This document shows positions 11,394 to 25,000 of a DNA stretch of 64,000 bases, in pieces. The translations under genes and the position numbers were made by a program. Source of the stretch: a virus (Duplodnaviria > Caudoviricetes). The first letter of the stretch is position 1, and each line of letters starts with the position of its first letter. Location: IMG/VR virus record IMGVR_UViG_3300042997_002652, positions 32,001 to 96,000 of that record. One strand, given 5' to 3'. The notes below the pieces were generated by a model, which saw only the letters and a program-made list of their open reading frames with translations, was not told the DNA's origin and searched no databases.

Positions 11394-12745
11394 TATAATC
11401 CTTCAAATAATGCATTTGGTGTATCATCTGTTGGTACAAAAGTTAAATCTTTTGTTAACCATGTATCTTGATCTGTATATATTACTCTAAACTTGTGTTT
11501 ATTAGATAATACGCTTTCAAAGTCCTCTCTTGCTATTTGTGTTCTGTTGAGGTCTTTTATATAGTCTTTGTAATTTACGGTTTCGTAAGTGTTTATCTTA
11601 GCTGTATTAGTTTTTGCTTGTTTAGCTTTAAAGTCAACTAACAACTGTTCCCAGCCTTCTGCAACTTGATCATCTAACGATCTGACGTAATCCAAAGCTT
11701 CAGGAAGTTGATTAATACCAGCTAACGCCAAGATATATTCATGTGCTTGTGATAAACTTGTTTTATGATAGAATTTGCTATCAAAGTTATCTGACCAATC
11801 TTGAGTATCTAGAACTACGCAAGGCATGTGTCCTAAACATTCTAAAAAGGCAAACGGATAGTTTTCTCTTAAACTAGGCATGAAAAATATTTTAGAACTT
11901 TTAATAAAGTCTACTTTTTCACTACCCACTATACCTGCTTTTATTTGATAGTCTGTTATACCTGCTTCTTTAAAAGCTTTTTCAAACTTTTTAGCACCGT
12001 TGGAATTAGTCATTACTTTGCAGGGTAACTTACACTCTTTCATCACTTTAATATATGCTTCAGGGTTTTTACCTTCTTCCCATCTGCCGATAAACAACAC
12101 ACCCGATTTAGTTCCTGCATAGGGTTCTAGTAATTGTCTTTCGCTCATTGGCATTTTTAACAGCTTACAATTAGTAGAACCATGTTTGGTTAATTCGTTG
12201 ATATTTTTTTGACTTTGTGTTCCTATAATAATATCACTAAACTCCATGTGCTTGTTATAGAAGTTGTGATAACTTGATAGAAAAACATCACTACCTTGTG
12301 TTTCTCTAAAGATCATACTGTGTAAATGAGTATAGAACACGATTGGTATGTAGCTGTTTAGAGTCATTGCATAAGCAGCAGACATTGCTTCCTGTGTGTT
12401 ACATATTAGCATATCATAAATGTTTGTTTCAAACCCGATAATAATAGATTTGCGAAAGTTTACTATCTTTTCAAAGTTAATAGTATCACTAAATGCAAAT
12501 GTATTAGTATGGTCAGTGTATCTAAGGTTGTCTGAAGGATAAACAATGTTTGCACCTAATGACTGCAACAGTTCACTAAACTCGTTAGTAGGTTTTTTAT
12601 CTACGATGATATCAACTTTCCATTGTAGTCTTGCACACATTTCAGTAAAACCTTTAGCAAACTGGCCTATCCCGCCGTGAGGGATAAGATGCTGGTCGCT
12701 TATTAAAAATCCAATTCTTTTGTTATATGTTTTTATGTTCCCCAC
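11393..12745 (-). CDS. GT-B (GT4-like) glycosyltransferase with extra C-terminal domain
   Basis: N-terminal PHGGIGQF, LFIGRWEEGKN and the EX7E motif ENYPFAFLE; about 70 extra aa after the GT fold. Confidence 0.8.
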   Translation of the reverse strand: MGNIKTYNKRIGFLISDQHLIPHGGIGQFAKGFTEMCARLQWKVDIIVDKKPTNEFSELLQSLGANIVYPSDNLRYTDHTNTFAFSDTINFEKIVNFRKSIIIGFETNIYDMLICNTQEAMSAAYAMTLNSYIPIVFYTHLHSMIFRETQGSDVFLSSYHNFYNKHMEFSDIIIGTQSQKNINELTKHGSTNCKLLKMPMSERQLLEPYAGTKSGVLFIGRWEEGKNPEAYIKVMKECKLPCKVMTNSNGAKKFEKAFKEAGITDYQIKAGIVGSEKVDFIKSSKIFFMPSLRENYPFAFLECLGHMPCVVLDTQDWSDNFDSKFYHKTSLSQAHEYILALAGINQLPEALDYVRSLDDQVAEGWEQLLVDFKAKQAKTNTAKINTYETVNYKDYIKDLNRTQIAREDFESVLSNKHKFRVIYTDQDTWLTKDLTFVPTDDTPNALFEGL

Positions 12746-13578
12746 CTATTCCCAAAAAGCGGGATATGAAGTCTATCGCTGTATCTTAATCCATGTTTCA
12801 TAGCTAGTTCAGCTACCCGTTGATTGTTTAACCTATATACGCTTTCTACGCCACCGATTGGCATCAAGTAAACAGGACCTTTGAACCCTTCTTTTCTATA
12901 CAATTCAGTTACTTCTATAGCTTCCATAGCATCTTCATCGGTTGCTATAACAAACTTTAAGTAAGTGTATCCTGCATTTTGATAATCTACAACGATTTCG
13001 GGAATAATAGCATCTTCACGTTTTTCACCTGAACAACTTAATTTAGGACTTACTGAAAATGTGATTTCTCTATCCCAATGCTGAGCCGCCCACTCATTCC
13101 TTAAGTAATGTCTAAACTCTTTAAACAATGGTTGTGTGCCATTAGTTTCAAACGTAATCTCTTTTAATGATTGCATCTTTGGATGATTTAATAAGTCAGG
13201 ATAAGATCGTTGCCACCCTAACAAAGGTTCACCACCAGTAATAACCAAATGTTCGTCACGCCATTCTTTAAATGGCAACAGATTAACTATTGCTTCAGCA
13301 ATCGCATCAGTAGTAAGTTTAGGGGATAAGTGTTTAAAGTTTACATCCCAGCTTGCGTAACTGTCACAACCAGTCGTAACTAATGGCAAGTCATTATAGT
13401 TTTTATAGCTTTTAGGATGAATTAGATTTCTTTCGTTACTGATTTCACCTTTAGGCATACCAAATCCTGAACAAGTGAAGTTGCAACCAAATGTTCGTAA
13501 GAATACACTTGGTACACCAGTATATCTGCCTTCTCCTTGTACTGAATAAAATAGTTCGCTGATCTTTATATTAGACAT
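12733..13578 (-). CDS. queE: 7-carboxy-7-deazaguanine synthase (radical SAM)
   Basis: ISELFYSVQGEG, FLRTFGCNFTC...CDS, LVITGGEPLL, FETNGT, SVSPKL, RLHIPLFGN. Confidence 0.92.
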   Translation of the reverse strand: MSNIKISELFYSVQGEGRYTGVPSVFLRTFGCNFTCSGFGMPKGEISNERNLIHPKSYKNYNDLPLVTTGCDSYASWDVNFKHLSPKLTTDAIAEAIVNLLPFKEWRDEHLVITGGEPLLGWQRSYPDLLNHPKMQSLKEITFETNGTQPLFKEFRHYLRNEWAAQHWDREITFSVSPKLSCSGEKREDAIIPEIVVDYQNAGYTYLKFVIATDEDAMEAIEVTELYRKEGFKGPVYLMPIGGVESVYRLNNQRVAELAMKHGLRYSDRLHIPLFGNRWGT

Positions 13579-13774
13579 TTGTATCTCGTTTAGTTTTCAG
13601 GGTCGGGTTCTCTACCGGTCTGCATGATAACTGACTATCACACAAACCGTATCTAGTAGTTTCTGTTATTATCTCATAACCGTTGTAAATTACAACCTTT
13701 TCGGTAGTTTCTGTTTCTAAAAACTTTTTAAAAGAACCAAGTGTGTCCCATTTTAACTTTTTGGGTACATACAT
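13571..13774 (-). CDS. Small hypothetical protein
   Basis: Fills the gap between the PRTase and queE; likely start MYVPKK coupled to the PRTase stop. Confidence 0.5.
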   Translation of the reverse strand: MYVPKKLKWDTLGSFKKFLETETTEKVVIYNGYEIITETTRYGLCDSQLSCRPVENPTLKTKRDTNV

Positions 13775-14322
13775 TACTTCCACCAGTTTTCCCAAGAAAA
13801 CTCTATCCAAGAATCTTCTTCAGCTTTGTTAATAGACAAAGAAGTATAGGCTATATCTTTAAAGTCGCTGGCTTCATTGTTTATCAATGTAGCAAACTTT
13901 ACATTATGATTCCATACTGTATCCCAGGCATACCTTTCATTTGGCATACATGACGATTCCCAGTCTTTCTTAATCCATTTGATAGTTTCACCCGTATCAT
14001 TGATATCATCTACAATCAAGATATTCTTTCTACGTGATACGTCCCAACGTGACTTTTCAGTTTGTCTTATTTCAGTTGACAAGTAGCCAAAAGCATGTTC
14101 AGGCATCCAAGCATTACACTCTTGTTGCGCATGGTCTCTTAAACTAACTCGCAATGTTTCCATTGGCACATTATAATACTGACTGATTAAAAGTGCAGGA
14201 AGTAAACCACCTCGCGTAATACCCACAACGTAGTCAGGTTTATATCCAGACAAAGTTATTTGTCTGATGATATCCATAGTCATTTTTTGTACATCTGAGT
14301 TTGATAACGTTACTGTGTTCAT
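13774..14322 (-). CDS. Type I phosphoribosyltransferase (purine PRTase/Gpt-like)
   Basis: VVGITRGGLLPA and the PRPP-binding loop ILIVDDINDTGET; ends WIEFSWENWW like Gpt; start moved to MNTVTLS (AAGGA SD). Confidence 0.85.
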   Translation of the reverse strand: MNTVTLSNSDVQKMTMDIIRQITLSGYKPDYVVGITRGGLLPALLISQYYNVPMETLRVSLRDHAQQECNAWMPEHAFGYLSTEIRQTEKSRWDVSRRKNILIVDDINDTGETIKWIKKDWESSCMPNERYAWDTVWNHNVKFATLINNEASDFKDIAYTSLSINKAEEDSWIEFSWENWWK

Positions 14323-14323
14323 A

Positions 14324-14788
14324 TTATCCTTCATAAATTGCTGAGTTAGCATCATGTTCAAATACTTCTACGCTTTTAACAGATACTGTTTTGTTTAATA
14401 ATGTGCCTGCTTTTTGGCTTTCGTCTAAAATTTGCGTCATTTTCTTAAAAGCCATTTCAGCAAATCGTTCACATCCAACTGCTGGAACAATTCGCAAATC
14501 AGCTACATGTGTGGGCAAATTCTTTAACTGTTCAAGTTCGGGATCATCTTCAGCTACTAACAAAGTATGATCAAACATGTGTTCTAGCCACTGTTTAAAT
14601 TCTTTAAGCCCGCCAAAATCCATGACCCAGTTTCTTTCATCCAAGCTTTCACATTCAAAGATGATTTTAACACCTATTGAATAGCCATGAAGTAGCGAAC
14701 AATGACTATGAGTAGAACGCCACTGTCTAAAGCAACAGCTTAGTCCCCTGTCATTACCATATGTTTTTGTACTATAAAACTTACCCAT
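14324..14788 (-). CDS. queD: 6-carboxy-5,6,7,8-tetrahydropterin synthase
   Basis: CSLLHGYS (CxxxHG), WVMDFGGLK, FDHTLLV, GCERFAE, VEVFEH. Confidence 0.88.
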   Translation of the reverse strand: MGKFYSTKTYGNDRGLSCCFRQWRSTHSHCSLLHGYSIGVKIIFECESLDERNWVMDFGGLKEFKQWLEHMFDHTLLVAEDDPELEQLKNLPTHVADLRIVPAVGCERFAEMAFKKMTQILDESQKAGTLLNKTVSVKSVEVFEHDANSAIYEG

Positions 14789-15245
14789 TCTTTCTCTCCG
14801 ATTCTGTTACTCGTTTACGTAAACTACTAGAGCTAAAACTATGATTTCTTTTATTATAAATGATTTCTATGTCAATTGCAAGACAATATTCTTTACCAGT
14901 GAAATCTTTGTCCATGTACTCTGCTCCCAATATACGAACATCTACTGGAAGTATTTTTAGTAAATCAAGCAAGTCTTGTTCAGTTTGGTATACCACAACT
15001 TCATCTACAAACCTACATGAACTTAATTGTATCTGTCGTTCAACGATACTTTGTACTGGTTTGTTTTTGGTGTCAGGTCTATCTATAGTTGGATCAGTTT
15101 GTAATCCAGCGATCAGGTAGTCGCAGTGATTTTTAGCTTCAGCTAACATTGCTATGTGTCCGGCATGAAGAAGGTCAAAAGCAGAAAATACTATGCCTAT
15201 CTTTTTTCCTTCTTCTTTTAATTGTCTAATTACATTAAAGATCAT
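14781..15245 (-). CDS. TagD/RfaE-like cytidylyltransferase (HxGH family)
   Basis: FSAFDLLHAGH, LIAGLQTD, PVQSIVER, SFSSSSLR. Confidence 0.88.
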   Translation of the reverse strand: MIFNVIRQLKEEGKKIGIVFSAFDLLHAGHIAMLAEAKNHCDYLIAGLQTDPTIDRPDTKNKPVQSIVERQIQLSSCRFVDEVVVYQTEQDLLDLLKILPVDVRILGAEYMDKDFTGKEYCLAIDIEIIYNKRNHSFSSSSLRKRVTESERKNG

Positions 15246-15928
15246 TTCTGAGGTTTTCCCATTCGTGCAATGCTTAGAAACTCTGCTCTTGCTGCTGGAT
15301 CAGTTTTGAAACCTCCACCTAATTTACAAGTTACTGTGCTTGACCCAGTGTCTTCAACACCGCGGCTCTTAACACAATAATGCTGTGCATCTATCATAAC
15401 AGCAACATGTTCAGTTTCTAAAATATAGGAAAGTGCATGGAATACTTGTTCAGTCAGTCTTTCTTGGATCTGAGGACGCTTACTGAAATACTCAACAATC
15501 CGATTGATCTTTGAAAGACCCAGAACCTTTTCCTGGGGTACGTATGCTACAGTAGCAAGACCATCAATGATTACAAAGTGATGTTCACAATTAGATTGTA
15601 CGTTTACGTTGCGTTCAACGACCATTTCGTCATAGCCCATTTTGTTTGCAACAGTAGTACATTTTGGGAATGCATCATAGTCTAGACCCCAAAAGATTTC
15701 ATTAACATACATCTTAGCAACACGCTTGGGCGTTTCTATAAGACTGTCATCAGATAAATTTAACCCGAGGGCTTGCATAATATCGGTAAACTTAGCTTCA
15801 ATGATTTCAATTTTGTCTGTGCGACTTAGATTGTTTTCAACTTGAGGAGTTTCAACTCCCATTTTGACTAGATATTTGTGTATCTTTTGACCCAACTCTG
15901 GATCACATTTTACTTTATTAAATGACAT
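15242..15928 (-). CDS. folE: GTP cyclohydrolase I
   Basis: ETPKRVAKMY, SNCEHHF, GLSKINRIVEYFSKRPQIQERLT, HYCVKSRGV. Confidence 0.96.
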   Translation of the reverse strand: MSFNKVKCDPELGQKIHKYLVKMGVETPQVENNLSRTDKIEIIEAKFTDIMQALGLNLSDDSLIETPKRVAKMYVNEIFWGLDYDAFPKCTTVANKMGYDEMVVERNVNVQSNCEHHFVIIDGLATVAYVPQEKVLGLSKINRIVEYFSKRPQIQERLTEQVFHALSYILETEHVAVMIDAQHYCVKSRGVEDTGSSTVTCKLGGGFKTDPAARAEFLSIARMGKPQK

Positions 15929-15946
15929 TTATATTCTCCTTTTGAA

Positions 15947-16003
15947 AGCATCTAACGTTAATGCTCAACGACCTTTCGGTATTTGCTACCTTTGTGTAGC
16001 AAA
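15947..16003 (-). promoter_or_regulatory. Three-hairpin leader upstream of folE
   Basis: UUUGCUAC/GUAGCAAA (8 bp), ACC-GAAA-GGU and AGCAU/AUGCU stems just 5' of the AAGGAG SD. Confidence 0.35.
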
Positions 16004-16008
16004 GATAT

Positions 16009-17112
16009 TTATCTCTTGTCAAGAAACACCGAATTAAATTGTTTGTTCACTCTAACAAATGTTGTACACTTTGACAAGTCTTTTAGGCTCGTTGCACCAA
16101 CATAAGTACAAGTACTGCGAACCCCACCTAAGATATCTTGTACTGTTTTAGCTACTGGACCTTTGTATGGAACCTTAACAGTCCTACCTTCTGAACTACG
16201 ATATTCTGCTACCCCGCCATGATGTTTAGTCATAGCAGTATCGGAACTCATACCATAAAACTGAACAAACTGCTTCTTTTCTTCAAGCTTTCCCAAACGA
16301 TTACCGGTTTCAGGGTCAAAGATTATTTGATTGGTTTCGTATACTTCTTCAATTATTTCTCCGCCACCTTCTGTGTGACCAGCAAGCATACCGCCTAGCA
16401 TTACAAAATCTGCGCCACCGCCGAATGCTTTTGCTATATCACCAGGACAAGTACAACCACCATCAGCAATGATATGACCGCCCAAACCGTGTGCTGCGTC
16501 CGCGCATTCAATAATGGCTGATAGTTGAGGATACCCAACACCTGTTTGAATACGAGTAGTGCAAACACTACCAGGACCAATACCCACTTTAACAATGTCT
16601 GCTCCACGTAAAATTAACTCCTGTGTCATATCTGCGGTAACTACATTACCTGCAATAATAGTTTTAGTTGGACATAATTTTCTAACTTTAGCAACAAACT
16701 CACCAAAGTGTTCTGAATATCCGTTAGCTATATCAATACAAATAAACTGTATCATGTCAGGATACTTATAAAGAATACTTTGTAACTTTGTAAAGTCACG
16801 ATCACTAGTACCAGTACTGATAGCAGTATTGTAAGAAAAGAATTTTGAAAAATTATCTTCCAAATCTTCTAAAGAATAACTTTTAACTAAGCAAGTAATC
16901 ATATTATATCCAGCAAGCGCAACTGCTATGTCAAAAGTACCAACACCATCCATGTTTGCAGCTAGGATAGGCACACCAGTCCAATTTGCGTTACTGTGCT
17001 TGAACTGATAAGTTCTTTCCAAACTTACTTCTTTTCTGCTAGACAGTGTTGATCTTTTTGGACGGATTAGAACATCACTGAAATCTAGTTTTACTTCATT
17101 TTCAATACGCAT
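16009..17112 (-). CDS. guaC: GMP reductase
   Basis: [70 protein letters not shown]. Confidence 0.95.
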
Positions 17113-17113
17113 A

Positions 17114-18313
17114 TTAGTACTTGTTTTCCTTTGTGTGTTTTCTATAATCTGTAGACATACGTAACCATTGCTCGCCTTTGCCTTCTATGATGTCACAAAT
17201 TCTATCAACAGTTTTGTCTGTCCAATCACTGATTTTGCCCATGTTTTTATGAGGTTTATCCAACAAAGATTCTAGTTTGCTGATCATATCTTCTATAGAC
17301 CAGGGCACATACATTCTTTCATGATCGTTAGCAAATACTTCAGGGAAAGAACGATACGCAGGGAATAAGACATTACATCCTAGTGCGTCAGCTTCACTTA
17401 CAGTATTACTAGTCCAATCTTGTAGTGCAGTATTAACTAAAACTCTAGAGTCTGTGAGTAAACGATAGTACTCATTTTTAGACAAGTTTTCATAAATCGT
17501 AAGCAACTTTTCTTCTTGCATAGCTCTAGCCATATCAACAAATTCTTGTTTGTTACTACGCAACGTTGAGCCTGTAAATATAGAAAATTCTATTTCACCA
17601 AACATTTCTTTGGGATATTTAGCATACCATTCTTTGATTAACTGAAGATAAAAGTCTGGATTCTTTTCTTGATCCCAACGTGAAGAAAAGCATACGCGCA
17701 TTTTGCGTTTATTGAATAAGATTAGGTTATGATCTACACGTTCTCTAACTTCTTGCTTATTAAATGCTAAACCAGATACGTTGTAAATGTTTGCAGTCCA
17801 TCCTGCTACTTTCATGTGTGCTACCATTTCTTCGTTTGATGCTAATACAGCACCTTTAGAAATAGAAACAATAGTGTTGACCATTTGTTCGTATTCGCTC
17901 ATCCACTTTTGCATACCCCAAACATGAACAAAGTCATCTGGATCAATAGTTTGTGCTAAACAGCGAACAAAGATACGAGGTCTTAGATTTTCTGGCACTT
18001 GAGTGATAATATATCCCAAGCTTTCAAAACCGGGCTGAAACATATCTTCAAAGTAAATTACGTCTTCATTTGTTACTTCACCCTGCTGCATCATACGAAC
18101 CAAGTTCATCATTTGACTCATAGCAAAGTAACTACGTCCGTGTGCATCTAAAACTTGACCTACTACAATTTGGTTAGAGTCATCAAGAGTTTCGCCCGGA
18201 ACATAAACTACTTTCATCCTTCTATGATCAAATACTCGCTTGTTCCATTCAGTTAATTGAAGTGTGTACCTTGCTTCGTAACTTTCAAGCCCCATGTAAA
18301 ACAGTTTTTGCAT
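17114..18313 (-). CDS. GT-B fold glycosyltransferase
   Basis: [29 protein letters not shown] (D/E-x7-E-like), PAYRSFPE. Confidence 0.7.
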
Positions 18314-18331
18314 TCTATCCTCTTTATTAGT

Positions 18332-18361
18332 AAAGAATGGGCTTGAAAGCCCATTCTTTTT
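18332..18361. terminator. Intrinsic terminator hairpin
   Basis: AAAGAATGGGC-TTGAAA-GCCCATTCTTT. Confidence 0.75.
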
Positions 18362-18366
18362 AGATT

Positions 18367-18594
18367 TTATCGTGATCCCGAAAGTCTTTCAAGTTGCTGA
18401 GCCCACTGATCTTTTACTTCCTTGCCAGTTAGTAGCTTGCCGTATTGACGCCAGACATAGCTACGATTGCTGTACAAGTCAGCTTCATCAAACCGGTACC
18501 CATACTCTCTACAGAAATTTCTATATTTATCCAAATCATCAAAAACTTTCTGAGTACGCGGATTAGGTTTAATATTGTTAGTTGAACGTGACAT
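18367..18594 (-). CDS. Conserved small phage protein
   Basis: 75 aa; VFDDLDKYRNFCREYGYRFDEADLY. Confidence 0.65.
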   Translation of the reverse strand: MSRSTNNIKPNPRTQKVFDDLDKYRNFCREYGYRFDEADLYSNRSYVWRQYGKLLTGKEVKDQWAQQLERLSGSR

Positions 18595-18664
18595 AAATAA
18601 AATTACTCCAATAAGTAATTAAGGTTAAAGTTAAGTTGTTTGAGAAAATTTTATACACTTATTC

Positions 18665-19108
18665 TCATCGTGTTAAGCAATTATATTCTATTTCACAACC
18701 GTTTTCATTATCTTCGGCAACAGAGATTACTATTTTTCTCCCAGAATAACGAGTTGCAATTACTTCGTACAAATCATCAGCAATCATTTCGCAACTTTTA
18801 TGATTAAGTTCCAAAACACTATTCTTATACTGATTTTCTAACCAGCGTTTGAATTGGATAAATTCAATATCTCGGTCATTATGGAAAACTTGAATAGCTA
18901 CCTTAAAGTAGAAAATATGTCTATGAGGCCAACCTAAAAAGCTAACATCATACTCATCTTTAGTTTTTAGATTAGGATCAGTGCTAGCATCAGGATAACA
19001 ATGAATACCTTCCTTTTGAAAAGTTACCCAAATCATACGAGTAGCCTTATTTTTGATTTGATTTCTTTGTTCTATCATAGCTATTTCTCTTTGATTAACT
19101 GCACTCAT
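18665..19108 (-). CDS. dpdL: QueD-like T-fold protein, DpdL-like (candidate CDG decarboxylase)
   Basis: LGWPHRHIF fits LxxxHRHxF, which I recall as the DpdL signature; also DIEFIQFK, SCEMIA and VAEDNENG T-fold elements; lies in a folE-queD-queE cluster. Confidence 0.7.
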   Translation of the reverse strand: MSAVNQREIAMIEQRNQIKNKATRMIWVTFQKEGIHCYPDASTDPNLKTKDEYDVSFLGWPHRHIFYFKVAIQVFHNDRDIEFIQFKRWLENQYKNSVLELNHKSCEMIADDLYEVIATRYSGRKIVISVAEDNENGCEIEYNCLTR

Positions 19109-19314
19109 CTATCATCACCGTAATCCAATCGTTCATGAGTTTCTTCCCATTCTTCTTTTATAAGTCTAGACAGTTCCAAAGAGTACTCATTTTTTTGCTT
19201 TTGCATTTCAACAAGTTTTTGTTTATTGTAATTCTCGTCTTTCATAGCTGCTTGTATCAGAGTAGTAAGACGGTTAATATTTTCTCGCACAAACTGAATT
19301 CTACTTTTATTCAT
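19105..19314 (-). CDS. Small coiled-coil hypothetical protein
   Basis: 69 aa, ATGA-coupled to the dpdL-like gene. Confidence 0.55.
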   Translation of the reverse strand: MNKSRIQFVRENINRLTTLIQAAMKDENYNKQKLVEMQKQKNEYSLELSRLIKEEWEETHERLDYGDDR

Positions 19315-19327
19315 ATCTTTTCTCTTG

Positions 19328-20884
19328 TTAACTAATACTAAATAAATCAGGATTACCCCACTGCGGTAATACTTTCTTTTCTAACTTATCTATTACCATT
19401 TTATCATGAAGGTCATCACCCTCAAAATTATCCGTAAGTGTAGTCATGTTGTTTACTGCTTTCTTACCAGAAAAGCCCTGACTTCCTGACTGCATTTGCA
19501 TCCAAAACTTGTTATACTGTTCAATAGTATCTAAACTTTCTTGTCTAGTTTTTTTACTAAAGATTTCATCTACGATGTCATTAAAGTGTTTGGGTTCAAA
19601 CTTGTTCATAATCATTTTTGGCATAATGCCCTGCTCGTACCTACGATTAGCTTCTTGAACAGCATAGATGTGTTGATACACATTATGGGCTTGAACTAGT
19701 GTATAACTCAAAGTATCCCAACTTGTTTTAGTTTCTTTACCATGCTGTCCCAAAAAGCCATGACCCCTATAACACAAGTCCTTAATAAGCATTTTATCAG
19801 TTACAGGAGAATCAGTAAATATTTTATGGATGCCGTCAGCTAAAACTGCGTCACTAAACTTTCTATTATCTGTATCATAGTTTTTATTTTCAGCAGTTTT
19901 TTCCATTGAATAGGACCATTTCTTATCATGTTCAATAGAATTATTAAAGTAAACCAAACCTTTTGCTGCTGCGAAAAACGGGCTAGCACAGTCAAATGTA
20001 ATTTGCAAGTTTGGATTGTGATACTTTCTAACTGCACGTTGAATGTCAGTAAACAGAACCGCATACTCTAAGATACTAGTACCCAAACAGTGAATAAGAT
20101 CGTGTTTACCTGTTTCTAGTAATCCATCGTAAATCATGTTTACTATACGTTTGAGCATCAAGTGAATGTCAATTTTATTCTGACCACCAAACGCCCAACC
20201 GTTAAAGTGATTAGTTGGATATACTTTTGGATCACAGTACTTTTTCATTTCAGCATACCATTCATCACTTTGAGTATGAGTTAATCCTTGAAGTACGTTT
20301 AATAACTTACATTCGCCTGTTCTGTTATTGATAAAATACTCATTGTTGATATGAGTAGCTGCAACAGCTTGTTCTATTGTAGAAATACCGTGCTTGTCAA
20401 GTAAGTGTTTGTTTCTAAGAGTTTGAGTAGGAACGTCAAGACACATACCATAGTCCATATAAGTATCCATCCATTTTAGTACTAGTTGACGCTGCTTCAT
20501 AGCTTTAGGACAGTTAGGATCTTTCCAATCAGCTGGCCATTGCCCCTTCATAATCTGAAATCCACCTGAGTCGCCTAACATGAAAGTACCCTTTTCACGC
20601 TTTCTGATAATTGACTCACTTGGATCATCTTTAGTAATGTCTAGATTAGCGTGACCTGCAGAATACAAGCCCCATTTGTACTTGTACAAACCCTGAGTAG
20701 AGTTCAAGAAGTTAAGTGGTTCTACGTCACCATTAAACCCTTGAGGAATTCTAGCAGCATCAAAGTACTGCTCACCTTCTCGTTGTTTGCCTAATCCTGC
20801 GATAAAGAATGAAGACACTGCCGGTAAGAACAGTGCCCATTCTGGATTGTGTGCGTTAGTAAGATTATGCTGGATCTGATCCAT
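19328..20884 (-). CDS. dpdA: TGT-fold guanine transglycosylase, DpdA-like
   Basis: TGT motifs in the correct order: LGDSGGFQ, CLDVP, VLQG, GWAFGG, IHCLG, ITFDCASP. No CxCxxC zinc site of tRNA TGTs; lies next to the Que genes. Confidence 0.7.
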   Translation of the reverse strand: MDQIQHNLTNAHNPEWALFLPAVSSFFIAGLGKQREGEQYFDAARIPQGFNGDVEPLNFLNSTQGLYKYKWGLYSAGHANLDITKDDPSESIIRKREKGTFMLGDSGGFQIMKGQWPADWKDPNCPKAMKQRQLVLKWMDTYMDYGMCLDVPTQTLRNKHLLDKHGISTIEQAVAATHINNEYFINNRTGECKLLNVLQGLTHTQSDEWYAEMKKYCDPKVYPTNHFNGWAFGGQNKIDIHLMLKRIVNMIYDGLLETGKHDLIHCLGTSILEYAVLFTDIQRAVRKYHNPNLQITFDCASPFFAAAKGLVYFNNSIEHDKKWSYSMEKTAENKNYDTDNRKFSDAVLADGIHKIFTDSPVTDKMLIKDLCYRGHGFLGQHGKETKTSWDTLSYTLVQAHNVYQHIYAVQEANRRYEQGIMPKMIMNKFEPKHFNDIVDEIFSKKTRQESLDTIEQYNKFWMQMQSGSQGFSGKKAVNNMTTLTDNFEGDDLHDKMVIDKLEKKVLPQWGNPDLFSIS

Positions 20885-22032: not shown

Positions 22033-24735
22033 TCAACCAAAAGAAAACAAACTATCAAATGTAGTATTTGTGTCTGTGTTACTTTTCAAGTCCCAGTTTA
22101 GTACACCTAATAGGTTTTCAATCTTTTTATCTACTAGTGTAGTTTCCATTAATGAGTCATCAAACGGTAATTGTTTGAACCAATCTGGAAGTCTAAGCTC
22201 ATCTGTAGGATAAGCAATGGAAGTGAATCCTAACGGATTGGTTTTAAGCTTACACACAACAACTTTCATACCATCTAAAATAGTCATAGAATAATTGTCG
22301 CTATGTGCCTTTTTAAGAAAGTTCCAATTGATAGCTGCACGAACATGCCCCGGCATAGTAGCCTTACCTTTTTTACTTCTAGCTTCTAGTTCGCCGTAAA
22401 AAGTAAGCTTGTTTACTGACTTAGGAGAACCCTTAGTCCAACTAGGCTGTTCGGATAGTTCTCGCTTAAAATCTTTGATACGTTCTATAATATCTTCTTT
22501 GGACTTATTGCTTAGAACCATAGTAAGAACGTCTAGTAAAAACTTTTGAATATATTTAGGCGTATCTGATCTTTTTAGTTCAAGACCCATAGCTTTAATA
22601 TCACCCGTTTTACCATTTACGTCTTTACGCTTGCCTTCTTTGTCATAGATATTTACCGCATAACGCTTTTTCTTGATAAACAAGCCCACGTCACCTATGA
22701 TTTCTCTGCCACCTTTAATGATAGCACCGTTCTTTCTTGGACAATGACATGCACGTTCCATGAACCCGGGAAAGCTATCGTTAACTTGATCAGCAATATT
22801 ATCATATAATTGGACAACTAGTTCTTTGTTCCATTCCATCTTACCTGCGTTAACTTCTTGCTCAATAATAGGCCAAGCTGAAAAATAACCTGAGTCGGTA
22901 TCAGAGTATATCATAGATTCGCCTTCATGATTGTAAGCACCTGTTATAATCTCATTGATCTGAGAATTCATGTGCTTAACAATTTGTCTACCAGTTAAAG
23001 TAACTGACTGACCCAATCGTTTGTCATAGAACCTACAGTGTTCATTTAAGAGTGCACCATAAGCAGAGTTAAGCAAAATCTTTCTTACCAACTGTCGCTT
23101 GTCATAATACTCTTTATCTGTTTCAGTAGTAGCTTCTTTTAGTTTTTTCTGCAAGTCTTTACGTTCAGCATACCAACGAGTAAGTAGACCGGGAATAACA
23201 CCTTCTTGATCACTTCTAAATATAGTACCATTAGCTGATAACATATACGGACTGTGTGAATCAAAAATCATTTTCCATATTTCAGCAGCAGACATTTCTT
23301 GTGATCTACCATCTTCAAAGTCAACAATAAGCATTGTGCCGCGTTCTTGATTCATTACTGAAGTATATTCTAGTGAACCAAACAATCCTTCCCAAAGCAA
23401 TGAACTCATGTCAAGTTCATCATCTTCGTCATAGTTTCGCTTTTCTTTAGCTAGTTCCATTGCTCTATCGTGTAAGAACTTTTCAGTATGTGTTTGTCTA
23501 ATTTGCCCTACAATTGTTTCTGGGGCCATGTTCAAAGCACGAATTGTTGAAGGATACAGTGAGTTAATATCTATAGCTCCCACCCAGTAATGCAATCCTT
23601 TCTTTGGTTGGGCAACATAAGCACCAGCAGCAGCCATTTCGCCTGAATGACCTCTTTGCTTATCTGGCACGATAAGACCTCTAGCATGTGCTTCATTATA
23701 GATAGCCATTTCAATCATAGCTACTGAACCCATTACTGTTGGTAACAATACTGTATTTTCGTGTGCTAGTTGATTAGCCAACTCTAAGAATTTTAGCTTG
23801 TTGTGAATCTTTACTACAAGCATAGTGTCTTGGCGGTTATATCTAATGAATTCTTTGAAGTCACGATTGTATAGTTGATCTAGTGTGCCTTCATATGGAG
23901 TTTTTGTTTCACCAACTTCCATTTCCCCGATAGCATCTAACGAGTAACTGTGTCTGGATTCATAGTTGTACTTTTTATACAACTGAAGATAGTCCATATG
24001 AATTCTACCTACTAAGTCATATGTTTGTTCTTCTTTACCAAATCGTTCGTAAGTTCTTGGTTTAGGTAATTGCCCCATTAAACAGAACTTTCTAGTATCA
24101 TCTTTACTCATGATCTTAGTTACTCTGTTTACTATATATGGAATATCAAATCCTTCTGAGTTCCATCCTGTTAACACATCAGCATCTTCAATTATTTGAA
24201 AGAAAGTTTCAAACATTTCTATTTCACTACGAAACAAAAAAGTGTTTGGAAATTCTGCTACTAGCTCTTGTGCTGTTTCGTCTGTTATGTGTTTAGGTGG
24301 AATAGCCAAACATATAAGTTGATCTAACCAATCCAAGTACAATGCAATTGCTGTCACTGGACTAAAAGGATCACTAGTAGGCGCGTATCCGCGTTCTGGG
24401 GAAAAATCAACCTCAATGTCAAAAAACGCTGTGTGAAGTTTTGGAGCTTCTACACCTAAATAGTTGTCAGATAAACATCTAAAAACAGTGTTAACATCGC
24501 TTTCAAATAACTTCTTACCCGAGTGTATACGCTTTTCTTTTTCAAATTCGCTTTTCTTTCTAGTAGAAAACCTACTTAAAGAGTCACGATAGATAGAACG
24601 ATACTTGCCTTTAGAGTCGGGATAATAAAATACATAGTTAGCAGGGAACTCCTGATAGCTTCTAGTGCCATCAGAAGTTCTTTCTATCACATGTATGCGA
24701 TCATTTTTTGCATCATTGATTGCATCAACATACAT
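22033..24735 (-). CDS. Family B DNA polymerase (gp43-like)
   Basis: Exonuclease motifs FFDIEV, GWNSEGFD and YNRQD; polymerase motifs DINSLYPS, KILLNSAYG, YSDTDS and KKRYA; start moved to MYVDAI. Confidence 0.96.
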   Translation of the reverse strand: MYVDAINDAKNDRIHVIERTSDGTRSYQEFPANYVFYYPDSKGKYRSIYRDSLSRFSTRKKSEFEKEKRIHSGKKLFESDVNTVFRCLSDNYLGVEAPKLHTAFFDIEVDFSPERGYAPTSDPFSPVTAIALYLDWLDQLICLAIPPKHITDETAQELVAEFPNTFLFRSEIEMFETFFQIIEDADVLTGWNSEGFDIPYIVNRVTKIMSKDDTRKFCLMGQLPKPRTYERFGKEEQTYDLVGRIHMDYLQLYKKYNYESRHSYSLDAIGEMEVGETKTPYEGTLDQLYNRDFKEFIRYNRQDTMLVVKIHNKLKFLELANQLAHENTVLLPTVMGSVAMIEMAIYNEAHARGLIVPDKQRGHSGEMAAAGAYVAQPKKGLHYWVGAIDINSLYPSTIRALNMAPETIVGQIRQTHTEKFLHDRAMELAKEKRNYDEDDELDMSSLLWEGLFGSLEYTSVMNQERGTMLIVDFEDGRSQEMSAAEIWKMIFDSHSPYMLSANGTIFRSDQEGVIPGLLTRWYAERKDLQKKLKEATTETDKEYYDKRQLVRKILLNSAYGALLNEHCRFYDKRLGQSVTLTGRQIVKHMNSQINEIITGAYNHEGESMIYSDTDSGYFSAWPIIEQEVNAGKMEWNKELVVQLYDNIADQVNDSFPGFMERACHCPRKNGAIIKGGREIIGDVGLFIKKKRYAVNIYDKEGKRKDVNGKTGDIKAMGLELKRSDTPKYIQKFLLDVLTMVLSNKSKEDIIERIKDFKRELSEQPSWTKGSPKSVNKLTFYGELEARSKKGKATMPGHVRAAINWNFLKKAHSDNYSMTILDGMKVVVCKLKTNPLGFTSIAYPTDELRLPDWFKQLPFDDSLMETTLVDKKIENLLGVLNWDLKSNTDTNTTFDSLFSFG

Positions 24736-24736
24736 A

Positions 24737-25000
24737 TTACTGGACCCTGCCAACAGTCTCCAGAATCGTGTTTAAATCTTCATGATCTTGATTAGTTTGT
24801 GTAAGTGATGACTTGTATGCAGTCTTTACTGCCCGTTTTAGTACGGATGGCTTGATATCTAGCTCTTCTGCAATAGCTTTTATCGTATCCGATAATCCGC
24901 CGTTAAGCGTTTCTATCTCATTTAATACTGAAAGACCCTCATTTATAATCTGGGTCAATTTAGTTTTTTCGTCTTGATTAAATACTCTACCGTTTGACAT
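24737..25000 (-). CDS. T4 DsbA-like small dsDNA-binding protein
   Basis: 87 aa helical; LSDTIKAIAEELDIKPSVLKRAVKTAYK. Confidence 0.6.
   Translation of the reverse strand: MSNGRVFNQDEKTKLTQIINEGLSVLNEIETLNGGLSDTIKAIAEELDIKPSVLKRAVKTAYKSSLTQTNQDHEDLNTILETVGRVQ

Follow-up and report, generated by a model that had tools for sequence, protein, structure and literature searches.

The window analysed in this study, a stretch of 64,000 nucleotides in full, corresponds to bases 32001-96000 of a 266,967-bp IMG/VR virus record (IMGVR_UViG_3300042997_002652) that represents an uncultured jumbo phage of freshwater type. Its 10.5-24.8 kb section is one minus-strand block in the replication gene region and is likely to encode a DpdL-type (QueC-independent) 7-deazaguanine DNA-modification module. 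In the order of transcription, the block starts with the genes for a family B DNA polymerase, a virion-protein homologue of 244 amino acids (aa), a 78-aa open reading frame (ORF), a 518-aa DpdA-like protein (P0001), a 69-aa ORF and a 147-aa DpdL homologue (P0002). It continues with a 75-aa basic ORF, a glycosyltransferase (GT1), GMP reductase, FolE, a TagD/RfaE-II-like nucleotidyltransferase and QueD, and ends with a type I phosphoribosyltransferase, a 79-aa ORF, QueE, a second glycosyltransferase (GT2) and a GalE-like epimerase. The polymerase gene shows that the module is placed in the replication block. When the nucleotide sequence of the locus was compared by megablast with the phage collection searched throughout (50,697 phage records), nothing matched.

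An earlier note on this DNA had listed folE, queD, queE, a second T-fold gene and the 518-aa gene, all of which were confirmed as real minus-strand ORFs at the positions given in Table 1. The motifs that it quoted were likewise present, LGWPHRHIF in P0002 and DSGGFQ (residues 105-110), VLQG (197-200), GWAFGG (229-234), HCLG (265-268) and FDCASP (297-302) in P0001. The phosphoribosyltransferase, the TagD/RfaE-II-like nucleotidyltransferase, GMP reductase, the two GT-B glycosyltransferases and the GalE-like epimerase are operon members beyond those named in that note.

P0001 had no match in Pfam, PHROG or NCBIfam and no sequence match in PDB even with a profile of 59 sequences, and the Pfam TGT model (PF01702) matched neither P0001 nor any other part of the 267-kb record at E values up to 1. 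P0001 was placed only by structure and profile-profile comparison. The AlphaFold (AF2) model, built on 59 diverse homologues, had a pLDDT of 89.9, and its five best PDB matches in an exhaustive structural comparison all belonged to the TGT superfamily: ArcTGT (Z 19.0), QTRT2 (Z 17.3), bacterial TGT (Z 16.9), DpdA (7ui4; Z 16.0) and Cap10 (Z 15.1). Unrelated TIM barrels gave Z scores of 11.9 or less against the same model, and Foldseek concurred on the TGT fold (E 4e-7). The P0001 profile was aligned to E. coli Tgt by hhalign with a probability of 88.7% (E 2.6e-6) and matched a Vibrio GR7B TGT-domain protein at 98.7%, against 0% for an unrelated control protein.

All motifs were aligned between P0001 and E. 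coli Tgt, namely DSGGFQ with DSGGFQ, LD (D150) with FD (D143), VLQG with IIQG, GWAFGG with GYAVGG, HCLG with YLMG, and FDCASP (D298) with FDCVMP (D264, the nucleophile). D105, D150 and D298 of P0001 were invariant in the 59 homologues and aligned with D89, D143 and D264 of E. coli Tgt, respectively; the same three aspartates are invariant in TGT and DpdA, where they serve in acid/base catalysis, base recognition and nucleophilic attack (Hutinet and colleagues, PMC10164549). By its modelled fold and profile, P0001 is thus placed as a member of the TGT/DpdA superfamily. About 90 C-terminal residues (from about residue 430) lie outside the region matched to TGT-family structures, and residues 469-518 were modelled with low confidence.

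No CxCxxC motif was found in P0001, and no conserved cysteine cluster in the 59-sequence family alignment. The structural matches, the catalytic aspartates and the absence of CxCxxC bear out the earlier description of the 518-aa protein as a TGT-fold enzyme without the tRNA-TGT zinc site. Bacterial DpdA (Salmonella Montevideo, PDB 7ui4) and tRNA TGTs share the TIM-barrel TGT fold and the three invariant aspartates with P0001 but carry a CXCX2CX22H zinc site that P0001 lacks. The zinc-free trait is not special to P0001, however, as none of the other phage enzymes examined (DpdA2 of ACP17, X1 and BUCT-ZZ01, and DpdA3 of phiST) has a CxCxxC motif either.

The earlier note had treated 19328-20884 as a candidate phage dpdA. 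Within the superfamily, the protein is neither DpdA2 nor DpdA3 but a separate lineage. BLASTP gave no sequence-level similarity between P0001 and ACP17 DpdA (E 0.36), and the validated DpdA2 proteins of nt-1 and VH7D were not found in the P0001 search. The transglycosylases of ACP17 (Acidovorax), X1 (Xanthomonas) and BUCT-ZZ01 (Synechococcus), by contrast, were mutually similar and matched the nt-1 and VH7D enzymes at E values of about 1e-38 with 35% identity. The ACP17 protein is called DpdA2 here on the basis of that similarity, and P0001 is linked to it only by a profile match of 96.5%. Similarity to phiST DpdA3 (CGPG_00065) was weak by every measure (BLASTP E 2.8; hhalign 66.7% over 82 columns; Foldseek E 0.016). 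Relatives of P0001 were found instead in Pseudomonas jumbo phage PA5oct (EST35_0316, 34% identity), Sinorhizobium phage Phosso (protein 440, 26% identity) and Vibrio phage 2.275.O (protein 468, the top BFVD match, E 7e-27). The family comprised 824 clusters at 50% identity and more than 6,400 at 90%, and 168 IMG/VR contigs were matched when viral contigs were scanned with the single P0001 protein, the family alignment being too divergent to serve as query. No paper naming this lineage was found, and it is therefore treated here as an unnamed DpdA-like subfamily.

Eighty related IMG/VR contigs kept the order polymerase, virion protein, DpdA-like protein, DpdL, 75-aa ORF, GT1, FolE, nucleotidyltransferase, QueD and QueE. 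A homologue of the virion protein stood upstream of the DpdA-like gene in 79 of these 80 loci, in PA5oct and Vibrio phage 2.275.O, and in one distant metagenome contig. The order of polymerase, virion protein (about 245 aa) and DpdA-like protein was common to the clade, PA5oct and Vibrio phage 2.275.O; in Phosso, a gene annotated as 'virion structural protein' lies directly upstream of the DpdA-like gene, with no sequence match to the virion protein. The DpdA-like gene of Vibrio phage 2.275.O neighbours genes for QueF, a YhhQ-like transporter, a QueC-type protein, an amidotransferase and FolE. Three further, distant family members were viewed on short contigs that showed little of their surroundings. 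Given these neighbours in Vibrio phage 2.275.O, and QueE and DpdL beside the DpdA-like gene in PA5oct, the lineage tracks deazaguanine synthesis genes. Like the DpdA subfamilies, it accompanies more than one kind of deazaguanine pathway.

DpdL is a QueD paralogue in which CxxxHGH is changed to LxxxHRHxF (Cui et al. 2023, PMC10516641), so that the earlier note was correct in taking this motif as the mark of DpdL. By tblastn against the phage collection, P0002 (18665-19108) matched ACP17 DpdL at 50% identity (E 2e-34) and phiST DpdL (CGPG_00067) at 32.5% identity (E 8e-7); its identity to the DpdL proteins of PA5oct and Phosso was 59% and 65%, respectively. When P0002 was aligned with QueD paralogues, His and Glu were shared and Leu replaced the Cys of QueD. 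The motif, the matches to named DpdL proteins and the alignment together identify P0002 by sequence as a true homologue of ACP17 and phiST DpdL. DpdL was carried by 29 of the phage records searched. The window and three near-complete relatives each encode it together with DpdA-like, FolE, QueD and QueE proteins and without QueC, although a divergent QueC-like ORF is present elsewhere in this genome.

The FolE-QueD-QueE core expected from the earlier note was present by family matches (Table 1). QueD was 41% identical to QueD of ACP17 and phiST, and QueE 47% identical to BUCT-ZZ01 QueE; the N-terminal cysteine spacing of QueE is unusual (C32-x3-C36, then C71). No queC or queF was found in the window, as the note had said, the sole QueF match being a T-fold cross-match inside folE.

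Table 1. Features of the minus-strand block, with positions in the window and the matches that support each assignment
Feature	Position	Strand	Basis
GalE-like NAD-dependent sugar epimerase, 280 aa	10551..11393	-	Pfam Epimerase E 4.5e-33; TIGR01179 161 bits, under cut-off
GT2, second GT-B glycosyltransferase (P0394), 450 aa	11393..12745	-	Pfam Glycos_transf_1 27.8 bits
QueE-like radical-SAM 7-carboxy-7-deazaguanine synthase	12733..13578	-	phrog_2076 E 7e-56
Type I phosphoribosyltransferase, distantly XGPRT-like, accessory	13774..14361	-	Pfam Pribosyltran E 2.5e-12; phosphoribosyl pyrophosphate (PRPP) loop ILIVDDINDTGET
QueD-like 6-carboxytetrahydropterin synthase	14324..14788	-	Pfam PTPS 69 bits; phrog_2389 E 9e-40
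TagD/RfaE-II-like nucleotidyltransferase	14781..15245	-	Pfam CTP_transf_like E 7e-12; TIGR02199 81.6 bits, under cut-off
FolE, GTP cyclohydrolase I	15242..15928	-	NF006824 316 bits (cut-off 202); Pfam E 4e-61
GMP reductase (GuaC), accessory	16009..17112	-	NF003470 560 bits (cut-off 397)
GT1, GT-B/GT4-like glycosyltransferase (P0393), 399 aa	17114..18313	-	Pfam Glycos_transf_1 26.1 bits against a cut-off of 26.4, borderline
Small basic ORF between dpdL and GT1, 75 aa, pI 9.6	18367..18594	-	Same position in 66 of 80 related IMG/VR loci
DpdL homologue (P0002), 147 aa	18665..19108	-	LGWPHRHIF; phrog_17812 E 2e-31
DpdA-like transglycosylase (P0001), 518 aa	19328..20884	-	Predicted TGT-superfamily fold; no zinc motif
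PA5oct virion-protein homologue, 244 aa	21217..21951	-	phrog_12062 E 3e-32; 33% identity to EST35_0314
Family B DNA polymerase	22033..24753	-	Pfam DNA_pol_B E 1.6e-40

The phosphoribosyltransferase, also encoded in the PA5oct and BUCT-ZZ01 clusters, was present in only some relatives, and GuaC came and went among them. The nucleotidyltransferase was considered as a pathway-specific enzyme and rejected, since its family occurs in 137 phage records of many kinds and is a generic phage auxiliary gene. The 75-aa basic ORF had no family match. The PA5oct counterpart of the virion protein (EST35_0314) has been found in virions by mass spectrometry.

The record as a whole is uniform in composition (about 36% G+C), holds most of its genes on the minus strand, and has capsid, portal and tail genes that are myovirus-like. 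No tRNA genes were found in the 267-kb record; one permuted (two-piece) transfer-messenger RNA gene was located at G000:C1:168987-169409, with the tag ANDEFALEDIRLAA. ORF starts are very sparse over 25 kb of the record (G000:C1 about 190000-215000), which implies one or few giant genes.

GT1 and GT2 set this locus apart from the plain phiST system. The AF2 model of GT1 had a pLDDT of 76 and gave Z scores of 20-23 to GT4 enzymes; D299-x7-E307 was invariant in 25 homologues, the EX7E-like reading being made by eye only. The GT1 family had eight matching phage records, from BUCT-ZZ01, the PA5oct group, X1 and BUDD, every one a DpdL carrier with the GT1 gene within about 2.5 kb of dpdL, and a weaker homologue was found in ACP17 between its dpdA2 and dpdL. 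The GT2 family had three matching records (BUCT-ZZ01, X1 and BUDD), again all DpdL carriers, and phiST, which carries plain 7-deazaguanine in its DNA (dDG), had neither. Hydroxymethyl-pyrimidine was rejected as the sugar acceptor: the record has a single gene of the thymidylate synthase family, which encodes a canonical ThyA and lies beside a DHFR gene, and, with no hydroxymethylase, no known sugar acceptor base would be made.

The presence of DpdL-specific glycosyltransferases makes plain dDG less certain as the end product. GT1 and GT2 probably act in the DpdL pathway, either by decorating the inserted base or as a component missing from failed reconstitutions. A more definite version, in which GT1, with GT2 if present, adds a sugar to give a glycosylated 7-deazapurine in DNA, or alternatively GT1 is the missing catalytic partner that DpdL and DpdA need to form dDG, is put forward only tentatively. 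The glycosylated-base reading would span the clade, PA5oct, ACP17, Xanthomonas phage X1 and Synechococcus phage BUCT-ZZ01, with the sugar added before or after insertion, and over that range it is likewise doubtful. T4 alpha- and beta-glucosyltransferases offer a parallel, being GT-B enzymes whose genes likewise accompany a pathway of base modification (T4 alpha-glucosyltransferase, Z 19.0 to GT1); they differ in that their acceptor is 5-hydroxymethylcytosine and they have no sequence similarity to GT1 or GT2, for which a DNA acceptor is conjecture.

Among characterised systems, Cellulophaga phage phiST (FolE, QueD, QueE, DpdL and DpdA3, with no QueC), in which dDG replaces all G (Cui et al. 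2023, PMC10516641), is similar to the present locus in having a pathway to 7-carboxy-7-deazaguanine (CDG) without QueC or QueF, a DpdL with LxxxHRHxF, and a zinc-less TGT-superfamily enzyme in a position beside the polymerase. It differs in its DpdA3 (259 aa against 518 aa here), in a DpdL that is only 32% identical, and in the lack of GT1, GT2, the phosphoribosyltransferase and GuaC. ACP17, X1 and BUCT-ZZ01 are alike in a DpdL of 40-50% identity, in FolE, QueD and QueE, and in a GT1 homologue adjoining dpdL, with GT2 and the phosphoribosyltransferase also found in BUCT-ZZ01; their transglycosylase, as described above, is DpdA2. In the DpdL cluster of X1, a PAPS-reductase-family (PP-loop) gene lies directly after folE (L094:7858-8391).

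The DNA of PA5oct resists restriction enzymes that act at G-containing sites, from which its authors inferred a modified G; they identified only QueE and a PTPS-like gene. The PA5oct stretch EST35_0314-EST35_0322 encodes, in order, the virion protein, the DpdA-like protein (34%), a GT1-like protein, DpdL (59%), a PRT-like protein and QueE, as at the present locus. These PA5oct genes bear hypothetical annotations, the motif in its DpdL reads LGYPHFHYF, and no homologue of the nucleotidyltransferase, GT2, the epimerase or GuaC was found in the 19-kb stretch compared.

The earlier note had called the pathway QueC-less, which applies to the window and to the phage clade. A search of the whole record located a divergent QueC-like ORF of 231 aa outside the window, about 175 kb away (G000:C1:239415-240110; L005:1024-1719), with the PP-loop motif SGGLDS and a C-terminal CxxCxxC. 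It scored 39 bits against the Pfam QueC model (cut-off 22), chiefly in the zinc ribbon, and matched phrog_1550, and its language-model neighbours were viral QueC-like clusters; against NCBIfam TIGR00364 it scored 30.3 bits, under the equivalog cut-off of 150.3. The ORF is situated in the head-gene module, just downstream of the major capsid gene and between a homing endonuclease gene and an HNH-type gene. No trace of it was found in three relatives (230-264 kb) whose copies of the neighbouring capsid gene are 93-96% identical, and its sole cultured-phage homologue, in Ralstonia jumbo phage RsoM2USA, had no deazaguanine context. The PAPS-reductase-like protein of X1 was considered as its kin and rejected, having no similarity to it. 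Since three near-complete relatives are without the gene, it was judged accessory, and it is probably mobile; the pathway of the clade is QueC-independent.

Of the bases that the earlier note had put forward (dDG, dCDG or a further-decorated form), the gene content makes dDG or a glycosylated derivative of it the probable one in this phage's DNA. FolE, QueD and QueE would convert GTP to CDG, the step for which homology gives support, and the DpdL homologue would then strip the carboxyl group from CDG to leave 7-deazaguanine. The 518-aa enzyme would swap genomic guanine for 7-deazaguanine by a double displacement of the TGT/DpdA kind, with Asp298 as the predicted nucleophile, Asp105 as the predicted acid/base and Asp150 reading the Watson-Crick edge. 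That the exchange would take place on DNA is suggested by context, namely the neighbouring polymerase gene and the restriction resistance of PA5oct. The phosphoribosyltransferase and GMP reductase would be accessory purine-pool enzymes and may recycle the guanine that the exchange releases. DNA modified in this way would withstand many, though not all, guanine-reading nucleases.

A number of points weigh against this DpdL-type scheme. Decarboxylation of CDG is so far only a proposed activity for every DpdL, and co-expression of dpdL and dpdA of phiST or ACP17 in E. coli gave no dDG (PMC10516641). QueE scored at most 57 bits against the NCBIfam QueE models, under every curated cut-off. The TGT fold alone is no proof of a DNA substrate, as Cap10, a fold neighbour of P0001, modifies protein, and the QueC-like gene in this genome could divert CDG. 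No acceptor specificity could be read from the fold of GT1, whose neighbours within a span of 4 Z units included the DNA alpha-glucosyltransferase of T4 as well as a pterin glucosyltransferase and GT4 enzymes of the cell wall. Over the whole record, TCGA occurred 32 times against 285 expected (9-fold depleted), and AGATCT, ACGCGT and AGCGCT were not observed at all against 43, 14 and 17 expected, respectively, with no depletion of GATC or CCGG. This avoidance of palindromes indicates that restriction pressure persists at some G-containing sites and that protection is incomplete or site-dependent. The DNA is therefore not immune to all restriction: either some sites escape modification, wholly or by their context, or certain enzymes are indifferent to the base. 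TaqI is among the enzymes reported to cut 7-deaza-dG DNA, which would fit the latter option.

An unlikely alternative is that the base is made before replication: the phosphoribosyltransferase would form a deazaguanine ribonucleotide, cellular kinases and ribonucleotide reductase would convert it to 7-deaza-dGTP, and the phage polymerase would incorporate it. GMP reductase would drain the competing G pool, and the TGT-like protein would be an auxiliary or act on another substrate. The phosphoribosyltransferase with its intact PRPP loop between queD and queE, here and in the PA5oct and BUCT-ZZ01 clusters, and a bona fide GuaC in the operon are in keeping with such a route, and in toyocamycin and tubercidin biosynthesis a phosphoribosyltransferase and a GuaC homologue act on deazaguanine intermediates. 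A route before replication would also account more easily for the complete replacement seen in phiST, but phiST is fully replaced with no phosphoribosyltransferase detected in its cluster. Moreover, close relatives vary in having the phosphoribosyltransferase and GuaC but consistently have the DpdA-like gene, DpdL and GT1, no PurA/PurZ homologue was found in the record, and DpdA is encoded by every phage known to carry deazaguanines. A tubercidin-like conversion to deaza-adenine was rejected on the same absence of PurA and PurZ homologues.

That the QueC-like enzyme turns CDG into an amide or a nitrile in this genome, so that the known base dADG or dPreQ0 is made instead of dDG, appears quite unlikely. 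Its SGGLDS and CxxCxxC motifs, its score above the Pfam cut-off, the phrog_1550 match and its viral QueC-like neighbours in language-model space agree with this activity. However, the gene reaches 30 bits where NCBIfam asks for 150, stands among head genes between HNH endonuclease genes, is missing from the three relatives and has its only cultured-phage homologue, that of RsoM2USA, outside any deazaguanine context, and DpdL would become redundant.

It is very unlikely that the TGT-like enzyme acts on host tRNA, other RNA or, like Cap10, protein, with the pathway reprogramming translation or signalling. The nearest solved folds are those of tRNA enzymes (ArcTGT, QTRT2 and TGT), with Cap10 also close, but P0001, in common with the DpdA2 and DpdA3 proteins examined from phages, is without the zinc subdomain that E. 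coli Tgt has and that is reported for tRNA TGTs and bacterial DpdA. The gene stands beside the DNA polymerase gene in every relative, the phage encodes no tRNAs, PA5oct with the same enzyme shows resistance at G sites, and DpdL is tied to a DNA base in phiST. Finally, the genes could be metabolic auxiliaries for a soluble product such as the pterin glycosides of cyanobacteria, with no nucleic-acid modification, given that FolE and a PTPS-family enzyme catalyse the first steps of pterin synthesis, that a cyanobacterial tetrahydrobiopterin glucosyltransferase is among the GT1 fold neighbours (Z 20.0) and that a Synechococcus phage has the nearest cultured homologues of GT1 and GT2; this is highly improbable, as QueE and the TGT-fold enzyme play no part in pterin glycoside synthesis, the structural match, at only 10% identity, is level with those to dozens of GT4 enzymes, and the glycosyltransferase families follow DpdL, not cyanophages generally.

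The interpretation in the earlier note is thus supported in part and largely sound, and two results are new against the literature. One is an unnamed, abundant DpdA-like lineage that is missed by standard models and links the clade to PA5oct; the other is a pair of glycosyltransferase families specific to DpdL phages. DpdA is treated as the hallmark of DNA that contains deazaguanine, and its viral members have been named as four subfamilies; the present locus defines a fifth viral lineage. Because Pfam, PHROGs and NCBIfam miss this abundant lineage, surveys undercount modified phage genomes. For PA5oct, a therapeutic jumbo phage whose G modification is unexplained, the lineage also supplies a candidate enzyme, and the relevant genes are present in the cultured phages PA5oct, ACP17, X1 and BUCT-ZZ01.

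The DpdL-restricted glycosyltransferases are a possible reason why attempts to reconstitute the DpdL route failed, and they may point to a new DNA base. A literature search found no account of DNA with a glycosylated deazaguanine, and a glycosylated 7-deazapurine in DNA, if true, would be a base class not yet described. With a previously unnamed DpdA branch and glycosyltransferases found only in DpdL phages, the final base of these phages may be more elaborate than any described.

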